DNA of 64,000 bases, from IMG/VR virus record IMGVR_UViG_3300017761_003320, positions 91,202 through 155,201 of that record; one strand, 5' to 3'. A program made the position numbers and the translations under genes. Positions 22,093-42,677 of the stretch are shown here, in pieces. A model generated the notes under the pieces. The model saw only the letters and a list, made by a program, of their open reading frames with translations, was not told the origin of the DNA and did no database searches. Source of the DNA: a virus. Position 1 is the first letter of the stretch. Each line of letters begins with the position of its first letter.

Positions 22093-22683
22093 ATGGCTAA
22101 AATTGCAAATGTCGCATTAACTAATACGTTTGATACCTGGAGGATTCGATCTAACCAGGCATTTAATCGTTTAAGTCAATTTGCGATTGATGAATCAAAA
22201 CTTTATGCTAATACACTAACTGCTAACGTGCAGTTTGTATCTTTAGGTGCAACAAAGCTAGGTTCAAGTGCCACTACAAGAATTATAGCTAATGGTCTAT
22301 TATCAACTAACGGCAATTTTACTGTATCAGGTAACTCAGTTATAGGCGCGGCCACTAAGCGTACTGTGATAAATGGAACGGTAACGGCTAACGGCAATTT
22401 AACAATAACTGGTAATACTACGATCGGTGATGCCGCTACTGATAGATTAACTTTAAATAGTAATACTGTTTCAATTGGTGCGGCCGTATTAAATATTGAT
22501 ACTGGACTTCTATTTTTACAGAAAAATTCAAATAGAGTAGGTATTAATACACTACGCCCAAATACGGCTTTTCATGTGAATGGTGTGGTCTTGGCAAATA
22601 GTGGATTCAAATATCCAGACGGAGCTTTAACAACTGCGCCACTATATGTGTATGATGATACCGGCTCTCAGTTGTATCCATAA
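22093..22683 (+). CDS. Short tail-fibre/adaptor protein
   Basis: N-terminal TNTFDTWRIRSN fibre-anchor-like motif; beta repeats GNLTITGNTTIG; C-terminus shared with the 1710-aa fibre. Confidence 0.65.
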   Translation: MAKIANVALTNTFDTWRIRSNQAFNRLSQFAIDESKLYANTLTANVQFVSLGATKLGSSATTRIIANGLLSTNGNFTVSGNSVIGAATKRTVINGTVTANGNLTITGNTTIGDAATDRLTLNSNTVSIGAAVLNIDTGLLFLQKNSNRVGINTLRPNTAFHVNGVVLANSGFKYPDGALTTAPLYVYDDTGSQLYP

Positions 22684-22692
22684 GGTAATACG

Positions 22693-23952
22693 ATGGCAAA
22701 TCCTTTAAAGGTCAAAAAAACAGGCGCTACATTTAACGGCCTGCAGCTTATGACAAATGCAGAGATGAATTATACTGTCGATGTTGTTCTTAAATTATTT
22801 GCCAATACAAATTCAGGTCTTGGTACTGTAAATATTGATGGTGCTACTGGTACATCAATTGGTACATTTGTTGATACTTCTAGATCAGGTTCTGTTGGTG
22901 ATCACCCAGTTGCAGATTCACCTACAACAGTAACCACATATACATTTAAGCAAGATGTTACAACTGCTGCAACAGAAGTTATAACAAGGCCGATTGAACA
23001 TTCATCTAGCGGTATTAGACAACAAAATGATACACAGCTAAATGCATCAATCATCACACGAGCCTTAGCTAACTGTGCAGCATCTGGTATAGGTTCATAT
23101 GCATTACAACCTAGTGCTCCAGTTGGAACTTGGACATCAGTCGGCACCATAACAAATAGTGTTATCGGTGCAACCAATACATCAACCTTGTGGAGAAAAA
23201 CTGGTGGTACTGCCCCAACCGCGGTAAGACCATTAAAATATCAAACTAGTCCGTCAAAATCTTTCAAAGAAATGACGGATGTTGAAATACAAGGTCTTAC
23301 TAATAGATTTCGTAATCAGATCATATCTACTGGTATTTGCACTTACAAATTACAAACATCAGCTCCATCACCAGGCACATGGACTACAACCGGTGCGGCC
23401 TTTGATGATACTAGAAATACACTAGCATCTGCGAACTATACCGGATCATATACTGGTTCATATGGAGCCACTTATAGTGGATCCTTTGCAGGATCTTATG
23501 CAGCCACTTATAGTAGATCCTTTGCAGGATCTTATGCAGCCACTTATAGTAGATCCTTTGCAGGTTCTTATTCCGGTAGCTATTCCGGTACATATTCTGG
23601 TCCTTATTCAGGATCTTATACAAGAAATAGATCACAAAATTTTCAAACATTTTTTACTGGATTTGGTGGTACGATTTTTACTGGATTCTTTACAGGATTT
23701 TATACAGGGTTCTATACAGGATTTTATACAGGATCTTATACAGGATCTTATACTGGTAGCTATACTGGGAATTTTGCTGGTACATATACTGGTAACTATA
23801 CTGGGAATTTTGCTGGTACATATGCTGGTAACTATACTGGGAATTTTGCTGGTACATATGCAGGATCATATGCCGGATCATATGCTGGAACAACTATTCA
23901 AGCAAGTTCAGCTACCATTTCAACAGTCAGCCTTTGGGTGAGGACCGCATAA
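22693..23952 (+). CDS. Fibre-like virion protein with (Y/F)xGx tetrapeptide repeats
   Basis: Internally duplicated N-terminal domain (two ...IG.Y.LQ.SAP..GTW.. units) followed by 38 tetrapeptides. Confidence 0.75.
   Translation: MANPLKVKKTGATFNGLQLMTNAEMNYTVDVVLKLFANTNSGLGTVNIDGATGTSIGTFVDTSRSGSVGDHPVADSPTTVTTYTFKQDVTTAATEVITRPIEHSSSGIRQQNDTQLNASIITRALANCAASGIGSYALQPSAPVGTWTSVGTITNSVIGATNTSTLWRKTGGTAPTAVRPLKYQTSPSKSFKEMTDVEIQGLTNRFRNQIISTGICTYKLQTSAPSPGTWTTTGAAFDDTRNTLASANYTGSYTGSYGATYSGSFAGSYAATYSRSFAGSYAATYSRSFAGSYSGSYSGTYSGPYSGSYTRNRSQNFQTFFTGFGGTIFTGFFTGFYTGFYTGFYTGSYTGSYTGSYTGNFAGTYTGNYTGNFAGTYAGNYTGNFAGTYAGSYAGSYAGTTIQASSATISTVSLWVRTA
23437..23892 (+). repeat. 12-bp-period coding repeat containing 36-bp tandem units
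   Basis: Units such as GATCCTTTGCAGGATCTTATGCAGCCACTTATAGTA and ACTGGGAATTTTGCTGGTACATAT(A/G)CTGGTAACTAT encode YTGS/FAGS/YAAT/YTGN. Confidence 0.95.
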
Positions 23953-24417
23953 ATGTCTGATAGACAAATTTTGGAACCATATTGGGCATCCAATTTAAAA
24001 AATCAAATAGTATGTAAATTTAAATATGCTGATGGGCGAGAAGTTGTGGCATCCGTATCGCAAACGGATGAAGGTAATCCTGATTGGGATGAAATAATTC
24101 AGAAATTTACTATGGAAGAAATTGATGCCAATACGGCCGCAGGTGTTCAAAGACATGAAGAAAATCGTTTAAAACGTCAGATGGAGCAGCAACGTCAAGC
24201 CGATAATTTTAGACGTGAAGCTTTGTTTATGGCTAAGAGTGATGCATTTGAAGTTGATTTGGTAAGAACTTCTACAAATACTGAGTTAAAATCAAAACTT
24301 AGAAAAGCGGCCTCTATTATGGAAGTTACTTTACTTGCATCTATGATTGCGCTAGATAATTACAACATGCAAAAGGTGACAGTCGATGCCGAAACGTCGT
24401 CAGCAAACACAGCTTGA
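23953..24417 (+). CDS. Hypothetical protein (possible fibre chaperone)
   Basis: 154-aa ORF abutting the repeat-protein gene. Confidence 0.6.
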   Translation: MSDRQILEPYWASNLKNQIVCKFKYADGREVVASVSQTDEGNPDWDEIIQKFTMEEIDANTAAGVQRHEENRLKRQMEQQRQADNFRREALFMAKSDAFEVDLVRTSTNTELKSKLRKAASIMEVTLLASMIALDNYNMQKVTVDAETSSANTA

Positions 24418-25144
24418 GCCTAGCAAAGGCTATCTTCTTGTAGCATCATATTCAAAAGCTTATTATGATGCTGCAATAAGATGCGCGATATCTATTCGTG
24501 ACCATCATCCTGATGCTAGAATAGTTCTGTTTACCCATGCAGATTTTATTAAGGATTCCGATAGATATCTATTTGAAGATGTCATAACTGGTATTCCGTA
24601 TCATATGCGCGCAAAATTATGGGCCCTTGATAAGACTCCATTTGATATAACTCTATATCTAGATTGCGATACTGAAATATGGCATAATGATATTTCTAAT
24701 ATATTTGACCTATTAGGTGATAGTGATATCGCAATAACTAATATTCGAGAATATGCTGGAAAAGGCACTAATGTAAGTAAGACTGAAAAAATGACACATC
24801 ACTGTGGTGTATTTCTTTATAGAAAAAATACAACCATTAGCTTTATGCAAAAATGGTGGTGTGATTATTTGATTCAAACAACACGTGGTCCATGGCCATA
24901 TCCCGAATATGAATCTAATATGAAACCTTGGGATCAATTTACTTTTTGGCGGTTGTTGAAAGAAGAATTTAAAAATATTAAAGTATCAATCTTGCCAGAT
25001 GATGCTAGATGGAATTTCATACATCTGTATCTAGATAGTGAGACCGATAAGCCAATAGTGGTCTGGCACTATACAATACCCAGAGGAATCGTAGATGCAA
25101 ACTCTATCAAAGATACATCCTATTCTCCAGAAAATTTTAGATGA
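24386..25144 (+). CDS. GT-A glycosyltransferase (GT8-like)
   Basis: RAKLWAL..TPFDITLYLDCD (DxD), HCGVFLY, WDQFTFW, RWNF, VVWHYT. Confidence 0.75.
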   Translation: MPKRRQQTQLEPSKGYLLVASYSKAYYDAAIRCAISIRDHHPDARIVLFTHADFIKDSDRYLFEDVITGIPYHMRAKLWALDKTPFDITLYLDCDTEIWHNDISNIFDLLGDSDIAITNIREYAGKGTNVSKTEKMTHHCGVFLYRKNTTISFMQKWWCDYLIQTTRGPWPYPEYESNMKPWDQFTFWRLLKEEFKNIKVSILPDDARWNFIHLYLDSETDKPIVVWHYTIPRGIVDANSIKDTSYSPENFR

Positions 25145-25739
25145 CTTTTCTGATTGGTTTTTCCAACAAGATTTGTCACAATTAAAAATACAAAGACGAG
25201 ATGATTTTAAGAAAAATCTATCTTACATAGAATGCACTAATAGAGAATATCTGGAGTCGGCCTTACCGACTCCGGAGAGATTTGGTTTTCCTAGAGACTG
25301 TTATGGTATTGATATGATCATACACCATTCGAAGGAAAGAGAGTTTTTTCCGACTTATTTTGATCCAGTGCTTAGAAAACTAGATGATGATCTAATGACA
25401 TTTCTTGGCGCTAGAAATAATGCATTAAAGATGTATTATCCACCAGAAGGTTTTATAGGATGGCATAATAATGGAAATGCACATGGTTACAATATAGTAA
25501 TAACATATAGCAAAACTGGTGATGGTGCATTTTATTCATATGATTTGAAAACCAAAGAAATCATAGAATACAAAGATAAGCCAGGTTGGAATATAAAGGT
25601 TGGATATTTTGGTAAATTTTCAGAACCTGATACTGTATTTTGGCATTCGGCTAGAACCGATTGTGATAGATTGACATTAAGCTATATCATATATGATAAA
25701 AATATTTGGGATAATATGATCGAAGATATTCAATCATGA
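25095..25739 (+). CDS. Double-stranded beta-helix (2OG-Fe(II)-like) oxygenase
   Basis: YYPPEGFIGWHNN...FWHSARTDCDRLTLSY gives an H-x-N...H...R pattern; HxN replaces the canonical HxD. Confidence 0.6.
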   Translation: MQTLSKIHPILQKILDDFSDWFFQQDLSQLKIQRRDDFKKNLSYIECTNREYLESALPTPERFGFPRDCYGIDMIIHHSKEREFFPTYFDPVLRKLDDDLMTFLGARNNALKMYYPPEGFIGWHNNGNAHGYNIVITYSKTGDGAFYSYDLKTKEIIEYKDKPGWNIKVGYFGKFSEPDTVFWHSARTDCDRLTLSYIIYDKNIWDNMIEDIQS

Positions 25740-26381
25740 TTTGGTTAACATTTGAATAACTTCTGCATCTGACATCTTTAGACTAAACACAGAATCAACT
25801 AATGAAGTTCTATTGAAAATCCATTTCATATCCAAAATATCATAACCATCTGGATATTCAAATGTAATAAATTCATCATTACCAAAATATTTGATCATAT
25901 ATTCTTCACTGGCCGATATGAATTTTTCATATAGATCATGATGATTACCACCAGTCCACATCATGATTGATGAATTTAATATGGTAAAATACATACCCAA
26001 AGTCTTTTTTCGTAAATGAGTATTTACTAAACTTTTATGCGTGATTTTAGATGGGTTTTGTCCTATGATTAGCTTGTCACCAAATTGTAGCATTTCATCT
26101 ATAGGCTTTAAAAGCTTCGAATCTAGATCAAAAAATATACATTTTGCACCATCTTCACATAATCCTGGCTTAAATAATAGAAGCTTGAACCACCAACCTT
26201 CCAAATCATGATCACGCACATCTATCGGAATAATATCTGTGCCTATAAATTCGTCGGGGTCATCGGTTAGGCAATAGTGTTTGAATGGTGAACCGAGATA
26301 AATCTTACTTGATTCATTAATGGCCATAACATATTTTTTGTTATATTTTGGCTTTACTAATATGGAGTATAGATGATACAT
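25734..26381 (-). CDS. GT-A glycosyltransferase-like protein (antisense to the operon)
   Basis: KPKY...YV, HYCLTDD, GWWFKLLLF, FFDLD, LNSSIMMW, YFGNDEFI. Start taken at ATG 26381. Confidence 0.7.
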   Translation of the reverse strand: MYHLYSILVKPKYNKKYVMAINESSKIYLGSPFKHYCLTDDPDEFIGTDIIPIDVRDHDLEGWWFKLLLFKPGLCEDGAKCIFFDLDSKLLKPIDEMLQFGDKLIIGQNPSKITHKSLVNTHLRKKTLGMYFTILNSSIMMWTGGNHHDLYEKFISASEEYMIKYFGNDEFITFEYPDGYDILDMKWIFNRTSLVDSVFSLKMSDAEVIQMLTKS

Positions 26382-27114
26382 GTCGACCTCTATAAAATTC
26401 ATATGCTATAAGTGGGGAAAGAAATACCCAAGTATATATGTTAACAGATTATATAATATGGTAAAAGCACATTACAATGGCAGCTTTTCTTTTCACTGTA
26501 TAACTGATGATATTTCAAATATTAGAAATGAAATTATAACACACGACATTAATAAAATTGCATCATTTCGTAAAGATATAGGATCAATTTTTACAATAGA
26601 AAAATTAAGTTCATTTAAACCTGGTTTTTTGGATGGAGGTCGATTTGTTTTACTAGACCTTGATATCATAATACATGGTAATTTAACAGAATATTTGAAT
26701 GGGTGTTTTACAGAATTTAGATTGATCAAAAATTATTGGCAACCTGATTATGCAGATATAACCCATTATGGCGGTAATTACTGTTCAATAAATTCATCAT
26801 TCGTTACATGGAAAGATGATCAAGCATCACACATATATGATTTTTATATGAAAAATCTCAATAAGATTTCTCGGGTTTACAATAGTTTTGATAGATCATT
26901 ATATTATCTTCAAGATGGGCAATATGCATTTCATTCAAAAGGAATAGTATATTCTTATAATGGAGGGGCCCACTATCCTGATGATAGGTCCGTAGGATTA
27001 TATAGAGATTCTTATAAAATTTGCATATTTAATAATTCTCATGGTTATGGTATGGATATTAACAATACAAAAAATTGGGCATTAAGCATGTGGAAAAAAT
27101 ATGATACCTTATAA
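26380..27114 (+). CDS. GT-A glycosyltransferase-like protein
   Basis: ICYKWGKKYPSIYVNRLYNMV, FHCITDD, LLDLDIII, INSSFVTW; paralog of the divergent gene. Confidence 0.75.
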   Translation: MSTSIKFICYKWGKKYPSIYVNRLYNMVKAHYNGSFSFHCITDDISNIRNEIITHDINKIASFRKDIGSIFTIEKLSSFKPGFLDGGRFVLLDLDIIIHGNLTEYLNGCFTEFRLIKNYWQPDYADITHYGGNYCSINSSFVTWKDDQASHIYDFYMKNLNKISRVYNSFDRSLYYLQDGQYAFHSKGIVYSYNGGAHYPDDRSVGLYRDSYKICIFNNSHGYGMDINNTKNWALSMWKKYDTL

Positions 27115-35811: not shown

Positions 35812-37548
35812 ATGGCTATAGAGCTATTTGGCTTCCGTATCGGCAAGGCTGACGAAGACGCCAAAAGGGCTGTACAGATTCCGTCATTCGTTCCGGAACA
35901 GAAGGATGACGGCGCGGTTGAAATCGCACCTGGCGGCGCTTACGGAACATTCGTTGATTTAGAAGGCACTGCTAAAAGCGAGGCTGAGCTTATTACTCGC
36001 TATCGCGAAATGTCTATGAATCCTGAAGTTGAAGCTGCGGTAGATGATATTGTCAATGAAGCATTAGTGACAGATCAAGATGCATCTGTTGTTCGTCTTT
36101 CTATGGATGATCTCAAACAACCTACACGTATTAAGAAACGTATAGAAGAAGAATTTGATGAAATTCTTGAGCTATTAGATTTTTCAAATATTTGTTATGA
36201 GATATTCCGTCGTTGGTATATTGATGGTCGTCTTTATTATCATATCATGATTGATGTATCTAATCCTCGTGATGGTATTAAAGAGCTGCGTTACGTTGAT
36301 CCTCGCCGCATTCGCAAGGTGCGCGTACCTCAGAAAAAAGAAAATGGTGATGCGACTAAGGATAAGAATCCTACAGTCCCTGCTTATTCAGAATATTATT
36401 TGTATAATCCTGCAGGCCTTGCAGGTGCAGCCTATTCACAAGGCATCAAGATTTCACCTGATTCAATCTGCTATGTAAATTCAGGTATGCTTGATAATCG
36501 CAATCGCATGGTACTATCACATCTGCATAAAGCTATTAAGCCTCTTAATCAGACACGCATGTTAGAAGATGCGGTTGTGATCTATCGTCTAAGCCGTGCA
36601 CCAGAACGACGCATATTTTATATTGATGTAGGTAATTTACCTAAGCCTAAGGCCGAGCAATATCTGCGCGATATGATGATTCGTCATAAGAATCGTCTGG
36701 TATATGATGCATCAACAGGTGAAGTTCGTGATGACCGCAAGTTCATGACCATGCTTGAAGATTTCTGGTTGCCGCGCCGCGAAGGCGCTCGTGGTACAGA
36801 AATTACTACATTACCTGGTGGTCAAAATTTAGGTGAGATGGCAGATGTTGATTATTTCAGAAAGAAATTATATCAATCACTGTCAGTACCAATTTCACGT
36901 CTTGAGCCAGATGGTCAATTTAGTTTAGGTCGCTCAAATGAAATTACTAGAGATGAAGTAAAATTCTCTCGTTTCATTGGTCGTCTTCGTCATCGTTTTA
37001 CAATGCTATTTGATCATCTAATGGAAATTCAGCTTGCGCTTAAAGGTGTGATGTCACGCGAAGAATGGCGTGAGATGCGGTCATATATCAAATATGATTT
37101 CCAGAAAGACAATTATTTTTCAGAGCTAAAAGATCAAGAGGTATTGACATCTCGTCTACAGCTGCTGAATACAATATCACCTTATATCAATCAATTCTAT
37201 ACAAAAGAATGGGTGCAGAAAAACGTTCTTCGATTTACTGATGAACAGATCGAAGAAATGGAATCTGAGATGGAAGAGGCTTCGGCCGATCAGATGGATC
37301 AAGCAATTCAGGCTAAGAAAACTGAACCTGAACAGATGCCGGATGAACCAAAACCACAAACAAATGAAAATTATGATAATGAATCTATGGTAAATAAACC
37401 ATTAACAGAACAAGAGCAGGCTCTAGTAAGAAACATGACTTTTGTCATGGAATCACTAGAAAATGATCATCCGGTAGATATAACTAATATAGATTTATCA
37501 GAGATTGATGATTTTATCGATAATAGAACAAGAGGGTTAAAGCGGTGA
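35812..37548 (+). CDS. gp20: Portal protein
   Basis: [72 protein letters not shown]. Confidence 0.97.
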
Positions 37549-40500
37549 CCTTATCCATAGAAGCAGCCAAAATACTTGCCGCAGCATTAAAAGCTGCTAG
37601 AAATGAATCTGACCGCGTTGAAAATAAGCTGCTTGATGAAATTCGTAGAATACCTCAGGGTCCTGAGGGTCCCCAGGGCCCATCTGGTGGGCCTGCTGGT
37701 CCTAAAGGTGATCGTGGTCTTCCTGGTATACCTGGTCCAGTAGGAGCGCAAGGCCCTAAAGGTGAAAATGGCGAAAGGGGTTTCATTGGACCTGCAGGTC
37801 CACAAGGTGAAAAGGGTGATCGCGGTCCAGTGGGTCCAGTTGGTCCTCGGGGTCCTGCAGGAGACGTGTCCGCTGTTGAAGAAAAACTTACTAACAAATT
37901 TGATGAGTTTTCACAAAGAATTAGCTCTCAAGCAACTCGTCTTGCATTAGCAGCAAAGCATGGTGGATCTGGTGAGACAAAATTAAATCGTCTTGATGAT
38001 GTTGACATCAATTCTGTTGATTCTGCTACAAATGGACAAGCTCTTGTATGGAATAGCACATTAGGTAAATGGCAAGCTAATACAGTTGGAGGTGGTTCTA
38101 CTAATAATTTCACCACTACTATTCAAACACAAGCCATCATTCCTGCGGCTAATAATACATATAATTTAGGTACTGCAGGTCGGCGTTTTGCTAATTTATA
38201 TCTAAGTGGTAGCACAATATTCTTAGGTAATACCACATTAAAATCTAGCACAACAGGCCAGCTTAAGGTTATTACAAAAACTGGCCAGGTAGAAAATTTA
38301 GTATCAAATGCGTATCTAACTTCTACCTTTCAAACTAAAGCCATTGAGCGTGCTGCTCTGGCTAATACAAATCTTGCTGTTACAAATGTCAAAAATAATC
38401 TGACATCTACAAATACTGCACTTCGCACATTGATTGCGGATAGATTACAAATTGCTAATGCTGCTACTTTGTATGCCACAAAAAGTAATCCAACAACATC
38501 AGGTACGCTAAGTCATACTGGTCGAGCTACAGTTAGCACAAACTTTACAGTATCTGGTAATACACAGCTTAGTGGTCTTATAGCTAACAATTCTAAAGGT
38601 TCTTATAATCAAATTTTAAGAACTAATGGATCTACTATATTTTGGGCCGATGAACCTCCCGCTGGGGGTGGCGTAACAACAGCAACATTTAATTCTGCTT
38701 TAGCCAATACCAATAGAGGTATTAGTAATTTAAATACAAATCTTTTGAGTTCCAATGCATCATTGCGCAGTCTGATAGGAGATAGACTGCAAGTATCTAA
38801 TGCTGCTGCAACCTATCAGACTAAAGCTATTGAGCGTGCTGCTTTAGCCAATACAAATCTATCAATCAATAATGTCAAAACAAATTTGACATCAACAAAT
38901 ACTGCACTTCGCACATTGATTGCGGATAGATTACAAATTGCTAATGCTAATGCTAAATTTGCAACAAAAGCATATGCAGCATCAAATGCTTATGTAAAGC
39001 AGATTCTTGCCAATACAAATGCATACATCGCATCTATAGTTTCAGGTGGAGGTGGTGTATCAGTAGGTACATTTAATTCTGCACTTGCAAATACAAATCT
39101 TGCAATTGGTAATCTTAACACCAATCTTACTAGCACTAATACCGCATTACGTCTTTTGATTTCTAATAGATTGCAGGTTGCTAATGCTGCTGCAACCTAT
39201 CAGACTAAAGCTATTGAACGTGCTGCTTTGGCCAATACAAATGCTTTCATCAAAGCTCAGTTAGCCAATACAAATTTGTCAATTAGCAATGTCAAGACTA
39301 ATCTGACATCAACAAATACCGCATTGCGTCTGCTAATTAATGATCGGTTGCAAGTCGCAAATGCTGATTTAAAATATTCTACAAATACATTCTCACGTAT
39401 TATTGTAGGCGCTAATAGTATATTTGCCGATAGCAAAGGTGATTCTTTAACTTTAGTCGCTGGTGCCAATATTACCATTGCGGCAAATCCTGGCTCTGAT
39501 ACTATCACTATCGCATCCACAGGAGGTGGTACTGGCGGTGTATCTGAAAGCACATTTAATGCGGCCTTAGCTAATACTAATCTTGCTATCACAAATGTTA
39601 AAGGTAATTTAACTAGCACTAATACTGCTCTCCGTATATTGATTGCAGATAGATTGCAGGTTGCTAATGCCGCAACAACTTATCAGACAAAAGCTATTGA
39701 ACGCGCAGCCCTAGCTAATACCAATGCTTTTATTAAATCACAGTTGGCTAATACTAATCTTGCCATCACCAATGTCAAGTCTAATCTGTCATCAACCAAT
39801 ACTGCACTTCGCACATTAATCTCTGATAGATTACAAGTTGCTAATGCAGCCGCAATCTATCAAACAAAAGCTACAGAACGTGCGGCTTTAGCTAATACAA
39901 ATGCATTCATCAAATCTCAATTAGCTAATACAAATCTATCAATTAGCAATGTCAAGACCGGTCTGACATCAACCAATACTGCACTTCGCACATTGATTTC
40001 TGATAGATTACAGGTAGCTAATGCTGCCGTTATCTATCAAACAAAAGCTGTTGAACGTGCGGCCTTAGCTAATACAAATGCATTTATCAAATCACAATTG
40101 GCTAATACAAATGCTTTCATTAAATCGCAATTAGCCAATACCAATCTATCAATTAACAATGTCAAGACCAACTTGACATCAACCAATACTGCACTTCGCA
40201 CACTTATCAATGATCGCTTGCAAGTATCAAATGCAGTGGCCACTTATCAGACTAAGGCGGTTGAACGTGCAGCTTTAGCTAATACCAATCTTGCTATTGG
40301 TCGTCTGAATACAAATCTGACTGGCACAAATACTGCGCTTCGTACGTTAATTTCCGATAGACTGCAAGTGTCTAATGCTGCTATAATTTATCAAACTAAG
40401 ACGATTGAACGTGCGGCCTTAGCTAACACCAATCTTGCTATTGGTCGTCTGAATACAAATCTGACTGGCACAAATACTGCGCTTCGTACGCTAATCAATG

Positions 40501-42677
40501 ATCGTCTGCAAGTTTCAAATGCCGCTACACTATATCTTCGCAAGACTGCAGGCGGTAATCAAACTGTTGCAAGCGCTGTAACATTTAGTGCTAACGTCAA
40601 TATCAATGGTAGATTGATAGTTACTGGTAATACAACATTTGTTAATCAGACAACTATCAATACCTCAGATAATCTGATTGCGCTTGCAAATAATAATACT
40701 GCTGATGTCAGCGATATTGGTTTCTACGGTCATTATAGAACAGATGGTGTCACCAATAATCACATTGGTTTTTTCCGTGATGCTGGTACCAAAGATTTCT
40801 ATGTGTTTGGTAATTATACTCTAGAGCCTAGCGCAGGTAGTATTAATGTCAATCATGCATCATTTGAAACTGCAAATCTAAACGTATCACAGCTTAAGGC
40901 CACAAAGGTTAGAGTTGGTGGTGTTGATATTGAAAGCCGTTATGCACAGAATACTGCTACGCGCACGCTTATCAATGATCGTTTGCAAGTAGCTAATGCG
41001 GCCGCTATCTATCAAACAAGAGCAATTGAACGCGCGGCGCTTGCTAATACTAATCTTGCAATTAGCAATGTCAAGACCAATTTAACATCAACAAATACTG
41101 CACTTCGTACATTAATTGCTGATAGATTACAAGTATCTAATGCTGCAACCTTGTATGCTACAAAAAGCAATCCGACAACATCAGGTCTGCTAGCGCATAC
41201 TGGTCGCGCAACAATCAGCACAAATCTTACAGTATCAGGTAATACTCAACTTGCTGGTGTGATAGCTAACGGTTCAACTGGTACCACAAATCAGATTCTA
41301 AGAACAAATGGCACCTCAGTATATTGGGGTAATGAATCTGCAGGTGGTGTATCACTAAGCACATTTAATTCCGCGCTTGCTAATACCAATCTTGCTATCA
41401 CAAATGTCAAGAATAATCTGACATCAACTAATACTGCACTTCGCACGCTTATTAGCGACCGCTTGCAGGTAGCTAATGCTGCGGCCACATATCAGACAAA
41501 AGCAATAGAACGTGCGGCCTTAGCTAATACCAATCTTGCTATTAGCAATGTTAAAACTGGTCTGACATCAACTAATACTGCTTTGCGTCTATTAATTTCT
41601 AATAGATTACAAGTAGCTAATGCTGCTACCTTGTATGCTACAAAAATTAGTCCAACAACATCAGGTACGTTATCTCATACAGGGCGTTTGGCTTTATCTG
41701 GACGTCAATCAATAAGCCAAAATCTTGAAGTATCTGGTAACACAGTTTTTGGTGATGCTACCGTAGAAACAAATCGCACTATAGTGAATGGTGCATTAAC
41801 AGCTAACGGTAATTTGACTGTTGCGGGTAACACAACTCTTGGTGCATCCGCAAAAACAACTGGTATTACTGGTCTGCTAACGGTCACTGGTCGTCAAACA
41901 ATCAGTCAGAATCTATACGTTTCTGGTAATACTGTTTTTGGTAACCCAACAAATATATCAGAACGCAGTACAATTAATGGCACGTTATTTGCTAATGGTA
42001 ATATCAATGTCAATGGTAATACGACTCTTGGTGCGTCCGCAAAAACCACTGGTATTACTGGTCTGCTAACAGTCACTGGTCGTCAGACTATTGATAATAA
42101 TCTGACGGTATCTGGCAATACCACACTTGGTGCTGCTGCTAAAACAATCACGACCACAGGTTTGATTTCGCATACTGGTCGTCAGACCATTAGCACCAAT
42201 CTAACAGTATCAGGTAACACCACACTTGGTGCTGCTGCTAAAACAATCACGACCACAGGTTTGATTTCGCATACTGGTCGTCAAACAATCAGCACTAATT
42301 TATATGTTGCTGGTAATTCAATATTTGGTGATCCTGCTGTAGTAACAGACAGAACAATTGTCAATGGTGCTTTATCGGCCAATGCAAATCTTACGGTCTC
42401 TGGTAATACAGTTCTAGGTTCTTCTGCCGCAAGCACACTAACCTTAACTGGTAATACAATAGCAATCACACCGGCAGTGCTAAACTTCAGCAGCGGCAAG
42501 CTATTCATTCAGAAAAATGCAAGTCGAGTTGGTGTAAATACCGTGACTCCAAATACAACATTCGACGTTGCGGGTATAATTAGATCATCAACAGGTGGAT
42601 TCCGTTTCCCTGATGGTGCTACAACAGCAGCACCATTGTATGTGTATGATTCTGCAGGAACGCAGCTATATCCATAA
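37545..42677 (+). CDS. Large fibre protein: collagen segment, ~44-55 aa coiled-coil repeats and beta repeats
   Basis: G-X-Y run near the N-terminus; 15 copies of LI.[DN]RLQ[VI].NA; [12 protein letters not shown] repeats; C-terminus shared with the 196-aa fibre. Confidence 0.8.
38330..41640 (+). repeat. Coding repeat array ([44 protein letters not shown])
   Basis: 15 hand-counted copies, synonymously diverged and interrupted by globular inserts. Confidence 0.9.

Follow-up and report, generated by a model that had tools for sequence, protein, structure and literature searches.

A 419-residue protein encoded among the baseplate genes of a freshwater T4-like phage probably carries a self-paired antiparallel hairpin ribbon on the base domain of a virion (baseplate or fibre) protein, a reading in which we place fair confidence. 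In the proposed architecture, the chain would leave the base domain, run out for 76 residues as a beta strand, turn at an aromatic, glycine-rich tip and run back for another 76 residues, after which a conserved tail would re-enter the base domain. The two arms would thereby form one antiparallel ribbon, about 25 nm long if fully extended. Positions 1 (Tyr/Phe) and 3 (Gly) of each tetrad would lie on one face and the small polar positions 2 and 4 on the other, such that mirror-related tetrads touch, Tyr against Tyr and Phe against Phe, with an N-arm Arg or other non-Gly residue usually beside a Phe pair. Further, a two-residue bulge in one arm would be met by a bulge in the partner arm. The length of the ribbon is envisaged to evolve by tandem-repeat slippage in either arm, with selection retaining only those variants that acquire a matching change opposite; since the DNA of the two arms is dissimilar and offers no coupling at that level, it must be selection on folding that keeps the arms matched. 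The tip, or the globular domain inserted there in large relatives, would constitute the distal end. Further copies of the protein, or another part of the virion, probably associate with the Tyr/Gly face and bury it, and such burial would account for layers that are all Tyr or all Phe.

The window, by which we mean the whole stretch of 64,000 nucleotides that was analysed, is part of a complete virus record of 155,201 bp with terminal repeats. The carrier is a freshwater T4-like myovirus, and near-identical DNA is found in freshwater metagenomes from 16 studies. The gene of interest (Table 1) sits inside the structural module, the location expected of tail fibre and baseplate genes. Upstream of it lie gp5-, gp6-, gp7- and gp8-like baseplate genes, a gene for a 2101-aa DUF4815 protein, a small virion structural protein of phrog_473 and a 196-aa fibre-like protein, while the neck, terminase, sheath, portal and major head genes follow further downstream. 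This order around the fibre gene is kept across 80 related loci, and its position is that at which T4 has gp9 to gp12 and wac. Together with the inserts found in large relatives (see below), the gene order suggests a baseplate fibre whose tip would meet the host surface. As a separate observation on this neighbourhood, the last 155 residues of the 196-aa upstream protein (22093-22683) match the end of a 1710-aa fibre protein (37545-42677) with 50% identity (E 2e-43). The two genes lie about 15 kb apart, and two fibres of very different length thus evidently share one predicted end module.

Table 1. Features of the fibre gene and its downstream neighbours (positions in the window)
Feature	Position	Strand	Basis or remark
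Whole gene, 419-aa ORF	22693..23952	+	ORF list; single copy in the complete 155-kb phage genome
N-terminal base domain, aa 1-248; last strand runs into the N arm	22693..23436	+	AlphaFold pLDDT >90 in two models; best VIA-align matches are MABP-type beta-prisms
N arm, tetrads 1-19 (76 aa), [YF]-x-G-x	23437..23664	+	Translation; same length as C arm
N-arm DNA repeat, 36 bp x 3.1, encoding YAATYSRSFAGS	23461..23571	+	Tandem Repeats Finder, 96% matches
Aromatic tip FQTF FTGF GGTI FTGF FTGF (units 18-22), FQTFFTGFGGTIFTGFFTGF	23641..23700	+	Mirror centre 23664/23665; position-blind tip matrix places the centre at 76|76
C arm, turn unit GGTI (23665-23676) and tetrads 21-38 (76 aa)	23665..23892	+	Translation and tip matrix; Phe/Tyr pattern mirrors N arm
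C-arm DNA repeat, 36 bp x 3.1, encoding YTGNYTGNFAGT	23749..23859	+	Tandem Repeats Finder, 97% matches
Conserved C-terminal tail TTIQASSATISTVSLWVRTA, predicted to return into base domain	23893..23949	+	L414 and W415 invariant; pLDDT 89-97; same in relative P0080
154-aa gene directly downstream	23953..24417	+	Conserved partner; 77 of 80 related loci have it after the fibre gene
Four genes (252, 214, 222 and 244 aa)	24386..27114	.	Present in 64-75 of 80 loci

The original prediction, made from the window alone, had described nineteen tetrapeptides, a GGTI turn and eighteen further tetrapeptides, an exact mirror of FAGx units at 9, 12 and 15 units on either side of the turn, and arms encoded by different 36-bp repeats that had each expanded separately by the same amount. 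The first three of these descriptions are borne out in full. Translation of 23437-23892 in the frame of the ORF yields 152 residues as 38 tetrads in one register and with no indel, GGTI being unit 20. FAGS occupies units 5, 8 and 11 (-15, -12 and -9 from unit 20) and FAGT units 29, 32 and 35 (+9, +12 and +15). Moreover, all position-1 Phe residues, five per arm, are mirrored about unit 20 (5, 8, 11, 18 and 19 against 35, 32, 29, 22 and 21). The arms are built from eleven residue types only, and His, Lys, Asp, Glu and Cys are all absent. In the DNA, Tandem Repeats Finder recognises one period-36 array per arm; the consensus units of the two are identical at just 20 of 36 bases, and one arm of the window gene shares no word of at least 8 bases with the reverse complement of the other. 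With the arm repeats dissimilar and inverted DNA repeats lacking, the mirror does not stem from a palindrome in the DNA and exists at the protein level only. On its own, the mirror in the window might be a coincidence, because a block of period three has few degrees of freedom (p of about 0.05-0.1 by rough estimate); chance is ruled out by the fact that 37 non-redundant relatives, whose Phe patterns are quite different, show this mirror too.

These relatives belong to a sizeable family. A word-indexed search returned 757 homologues among the 8000 candidates scored, and an exhaustive search 857 clusters at 50% identity. The family occurs in freshwater and marine samples alike, and relatives are encoded on 428 viral contigs. 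The common plan comprises an N domain of about 245 aa, a [YF]-x-G-x array, a tip motif, a second array and a tail ending in ...STVSLWVRTA. None of the family members found carries a Pfam domain or an informative name, and searches of Pfam and PHROGs with the 419-aa protein returned no family. In the ESM Atlas only the family's own unnamed viral clusters are recovered, the nearest named entries (Gp10_C and others) scoring below 0.8, and tblastn against 50,697 phage records gave as its sole match one uncharacterised protein. This match is a 3348-aa 'hypothetical protein' of phage C48C1, a complete Kyanoviridae genome (OQ984149.1 141011-151054; L082:112-10155), and it is a giant member of the family: its N domain and C tail are those of the other members, its arms consist of YxRxRxSx octads and FxGNYxRx tetrads, and it contains several non-repeat inserts, of which one is partly duplicated.

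If the two arms pair with each other, their lengths should change together, and it was on this point, the co-variation of arm lengths among homologues, that the prediction had been staked. For the comparison, arrays were anchored on a conserved DTR motif (+10) and a conserved LW (-14), and the tip was placed by a position-blind weight matrix built from motif hits. The prediction came through: the arms are exactly equal in 76 of the 86 relatives with a confident single tip, and these equal arms come in 25 distinct lengths, the shortest 24 and the longest 182 aa. For 43 disjoint nearest-neighbour pairs of unlike length, the N arm and the C arm have changed by the same amount in 34 (r = 0.99 over the 43 pairs). 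Two sister pairs (P0001/P0003 and P0014/L006), each identical in the N domain, are 12 aa apart in either arm, which, along with the dissimilar 36-bp repeats, fits the separate and equal expansion of each arm that had been proposed. The remaining 10 of the 86 have unequal arms, three of them by exactly 12 aa or one 36-bp copy, and these 12-aa exceptions may be due either to slippage that was left uncompensated or to faulty assembly. In four freshwater runs, every Logan contig breaks within the 36-bp blocks (at 23509, 23535-23818 and 23832); as both blocks interrupt short-read contigs, the copy numbers given by metagenome assemblies may be wrong in some cases. Assembly error does not explain the general equality, the repeats of most arms being imperfect. 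Without recourse to motifs, a mirror autocorrelation of the aromatics, run on arrays with bulges, placed the unique centre at the midpoint in 52 of 91 cases (about 7% expected by chance); near array ends and over short windows the method is noisy, and the tip matrix and the covariation were therefore preferred.

The covariation was measured on 37 non-redundant equal-armed arrays, with the three tip-adjacent units left out. When unit i of the N arm is set against unit n+2-i of the C arm, the choice of Phe or Tyr at position 1 agrees with a phi of 0.90 (67 FF and 312 YY pairs against 12 mixed), and the mutual information at this register stands at z = 54 relative to shuffles. No other mirror register exceeds a phi of 0.41, and no parallel register 0.31. 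The family register is that of the window, in which unit 5 lies opposite unit 35. The Phe patterns themselves vary widely, with Phe in every third unit, in every second or irregularly, and the mirror is perfect in 21 of the 27 Phe-bearing arrays. In the N arm, position 3 of the preceding unit is a residue other than Gly, often Arg, in 52 of 71 cases before Phe against 21 of 320 before Tyr; a Gly and Tyr pair would thus be exchanged for an Arg and Phe pair, as would fit tight packing.

The irregular units obey the same mirror. Outside the tip, 1728 tetrads are accompanied by 141 even-sized irregular units (104 of six residues and 32 of eight) and by 18 odd-sized ones, several of which are parsing artefacts. 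Even-sized units fit beta strands, as insertions of two residues preserve strand alternation. Six-residue units occur equidistant from the tip in both arms, at 20 and 42 aa in one relative (P0088), while in another (L063) all seven six-residue sites, 32 to 164 aa from the tip, are matched between the arms. The types of bulge pair as well, GxKT standing opposite GTSx in either order (xKT against TSx). Units of the YAGSRN type (P0056, P0098, P0110 and L078) are equal in number in each arm, their C-arm copies lying 4 aa nearer the tip, whereas the match is exact for units of the KT/TS type. Overall, comparison among the relatives establishes the antiparallel register along with matched arms and even-sized units. 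The antiparallel hairpin with matched duplications, as originally predicted, is hence supported by the equal arms and by a covariation confined to the mirror register, and the outcome named in advance as contrary to it, a parallel solenoid or disorder, was not obtained, the covariation being absent from all parallel registers.

The centre of the array has a character of its own. The consensus of 71 distinct tips is Y-x-[LRA]-[FY]-[YF]-[ASG]-G-[FYR] / x-G-G-x-[FY]-T-G-[FY], where '/' marks the centre, and one Gly is invariant. Within two to four units of the tip, aromatics reach a frequency of 0.5-0.9 at tetrad position 4, against less than 0.1 elsewhere, and with these added, both faces of the ribbon become aromatic near the tip. 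The very aromatic tip that had been anticipated is accordingly there in units 18-22 of the window protein, which also hold two Arg, with aromatics on both faces in the family. Large relatives (700 to 2500 aa) carry a central non-repeat insert of 100-600 aa between near-equal arms (163/166, 74/74, 196/195, 306/311 and 412/424). A guess that one such insert (P0143) is a laminin-G/ConA-like domain was unconfirmed, Pfam searches of eight large relatives being empty. In addition, eight relatives of 415-418 aa have two tips (P0005, P0006, P0011, P0013, P0016, P0018, P0022 and L011), at 48 and 99 of an array of 148 aa, and in P0005, examined by hand, the Phe/Tyr mirror holds inside each small hairpin. 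The two-tip form evidently is a tandem duplication of a short hairpin on a common stem, with a putative forked or four-stranded distal part. The centred inserts and the two-tip variant together imply that the array centre is the distal end and that the hairpin can fold within one chain. The aromatic, Gly and Arg make-up of the tip, the central inserts and the analogy with the MABP hairpin described below suggest that the tip may bind a receptor or membrane.

Modelling by AlphaFold, which had been proposed as a check, supports the base of the ribbon and leaves its distal arms uncertain. In the monomer of the window protein, computed with 50 aligned relatives, the N domain is predicted with pLDDT >90 and the C tail with 89-97. 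Strands are drawn at 237-257/389-418 and 284-310/338-364, symmetrically about residue 324, at an arm pLDDT of <50. A relative with 28-aa arms (P0080) reaches a mean pLDDT of 87.9, and its strands 236-260 and 288-320, well predicted close to the base, become weak towards the tip. In both models, pLDDT is <50 over the outer two thirds of the arms. These predictions support the view that both chain ends meet in one base domain and that the ribbon starts there, the whole ribbon lying beyond the reach of the models.

Foldseek found no match at E <= 0.001 against the PDB or against viral models; its weak PDB rows are pore-forming toxins with long hairpins, and they were given no weight. Exhaustive comparison with VIA-align returned the same top four for both models, namely the Mp2Ba1 C-terminal domain, Plu-MACPF, the MVB12B MABP and the perforin-2 P2 domain, with Z of 7.2/6.8/6.3/5.5 and 6.5/6.5/5.9/5.4 and identities of 5-12%, the next unrelated row being at 2.5. 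As these scores are middling and below the guide value of 8, the likeness to MABP is to be taken as a lead and not as membership. Separately, in both models about 43 residues of aa 126-171 (23068-23205) align with T4 gp11 (1el6) at a near-noise Z of 2.1-2.3 and 19-25% identity, and the same stretch aligns with a baseplate protein of Klebsiella phage KP1 (9f4b) at Z 2.0-2.1, likewise near noise. The recurrence of these near-noise alignments would fit a baseplate location.

Covariation and equal arms identify which segments touch, not the chain to which each belongs, and the same data could therefore be produced by interchain pairing, in which a dimer or trimer would place the N arm of each subunit antiparallel to a C arm contributed by a different one, as in the intertwined T4 gp37 needle. 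Phage fibres are usually trimers, and the AlphaFold monomers are unsure of the distal arms, both of which speak for such an arrangement. However, the two-tip variant is a hairpin duplicated inside one chain, most easily understood if the chain pairs with itself, and both models confidently build an intrachain ribbon at the base, so that we regard interchain pairing as decidedly unlikely. A different alternative accepts the ribbon as real and makes it an internal brace or ruler along the DUF4815 protein, the sheath or a fibre, the tip then being an assembly contact. The company kept by the fibre gene would suit this role, the DUF4815 giant being present in 69 of the 80 loci and the small virion protein in 50, and the Tyr/Gly face must be covered by something. 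Yet the arms vary from 24 to 182 aa, and to more than 400 aa in proteins with inserts, among phages with the same neighbours, which suits free projection better, and domains of several hundred residues are inserted at the tip of large relatives as they are in receptor-binding fibres; a brace thus seems rather unlikely.

The composition of the arms recalls the [G/S]Y[G/S] low-complexity regions, and with pLDDT <50 over most of their length they might also be viewed as a flexible Tyr/Gly/Ser linker of the FUS type or as a parallel beta solenoid, the mirror being a mere by-product of repeat history. Disorder would leave register and length free and gives no reason for equal arms, mirrored bulges and Phe:Phe matching, whereas the family keeps a strict register. 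A solenoid calls for parallel contacts between successive repeats, and these are not seen (phi <=0.31 in parallel registers against 0.90 in the mirror). Moreover, the DNA repeats of the arms are dissimilar and not inverted, so that repeat history cannot yield a mirror at the protein level. Both forms of this explanation are hardly credible. The self-paired ribbon remains the reading that we favour.

Several known systems share parts of this design. SMC and Rad50-type arms are antiparallel alpha-helical coiled coils in cellular ATPases; their two segments are bound to change in length together, and they carry a functional module at the distal end. As there, N- and C-terminal segments would fold back together here towards a far-end module, but the arms are built of beta-strand tetrads and the protein belongs to a virion. 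In the needle (D10/D11) of T4 gp37, a trimer, domain D10 consists of residues 811-881 and 1010-1026, and the core holds seven iron ions bound by His (PMC6957217). The likeness lies in the out-and-back chain, the tip in mid-sequence, which in gp37 binds the receptor, the base made from two separated segments and a repeated motif, which in gp37 lines the core; in the present protein, equal arms, mirrored covariation and both ends in the base point to such an out-and-back path. In contrast to the HxH iron-binding core of gp37, residues 249-400 contain no His and consist of [YF]-x-G-x tetrads; there is no match in sequence or family by Pfam, PHROG or tblastn, and the present family varies greatly in length. 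MPEG1 has in its MABP domain an 'extraordinary elongated' beta-hairpin, the tip of which binds lipid through positively charged and hydrophobic residues (PMC6753088). The predicted base domain may resemble such a prism (middling Z of 5.4-7.2 to MABP-type prisms), and the tip here holds Arg and many aromatics, whereas the present hairpin is repeat-built and far longer, and the protein is not part of a pore-forming toxin. By analogy, the closest system in principle would be the T4 gp37 needle and the closest in base fold the MABP prism.

The matched-arm ribbon appears to be a means, so far undescribed, of making fibres whose length can be adjusted. A literature search gave no account of a tetrad-repeat ribbon with a pairing code or compensating arm expansions, nor of the family, although such absence is not proof. 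We would go further only tentatively, and hold it quite possible, if short of probable, that the family represents an undescribed fibrous architecture: a self-pairing tetrad ribbon with a residue code reminiscent of an RNA stem (Tyr-Tyr, Phe-Phe beside Arg, xKT-TSx), which would grow in steps of about 1.4 nm through compensating slippage, branch by hairpin duplication and carry loop domains. Such a design would allow fast retuning of fibre reach in aquatic T4-like phages, and the GT-A-like neighbours of the gene may decorate its surface.

Fibre length and tip identity help to set the reach of a phage and its recognition of the host, and in this family the length appears to change by repeat slippage that is policed by a pairing rule readable from sequence alone. 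It would constitute a rare countable case of compensatory evolution at the protein level and offer a testable design rule for long beta ribbons, as well as a handle on a block of unannotated genes that many uncultured T4-like phages carry in their baseplate region. A structure would reveal how a ribbon with a Tyr/Gly face stays stable over tens of nanometres.

Further hints on the biology of the fibre could come from the genes behind it. The 154-aa protein has no Pfam or PHROG match, and a PDB profile search gave only scattered unrelated hits (E 0.1-0.9); that it serves as an assembly factor is a guess. Two of the four proteins that follow weakly match the glycosyltransferase phrog_1962 (E 1e-5 and 9e-5). 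Homologues of the 252-aa protein match Glycos_transf_2 (16 of 22), Nucleotid_trans (best 3.3e-7) and GT8; in profile searches of PDB sequences, the 252-aa protein itself has only a weak match to glycogenin (E 0.3) and the 214-aa protein none at E <= 1. Three of the four genes look like GT-A glycosyltransferases, and the five downstream genes may modify or assemble the Tyr/Ser/Thr-rich fibre. Finally, three further open frames, 67-159 aa long, lie across the repeat region in other frames (23462-23941 on the plus strand, 23411-23650 and 23690-23893 on the minus strand), and these are low-complexity by-products of the tetrad repeat, not genes.
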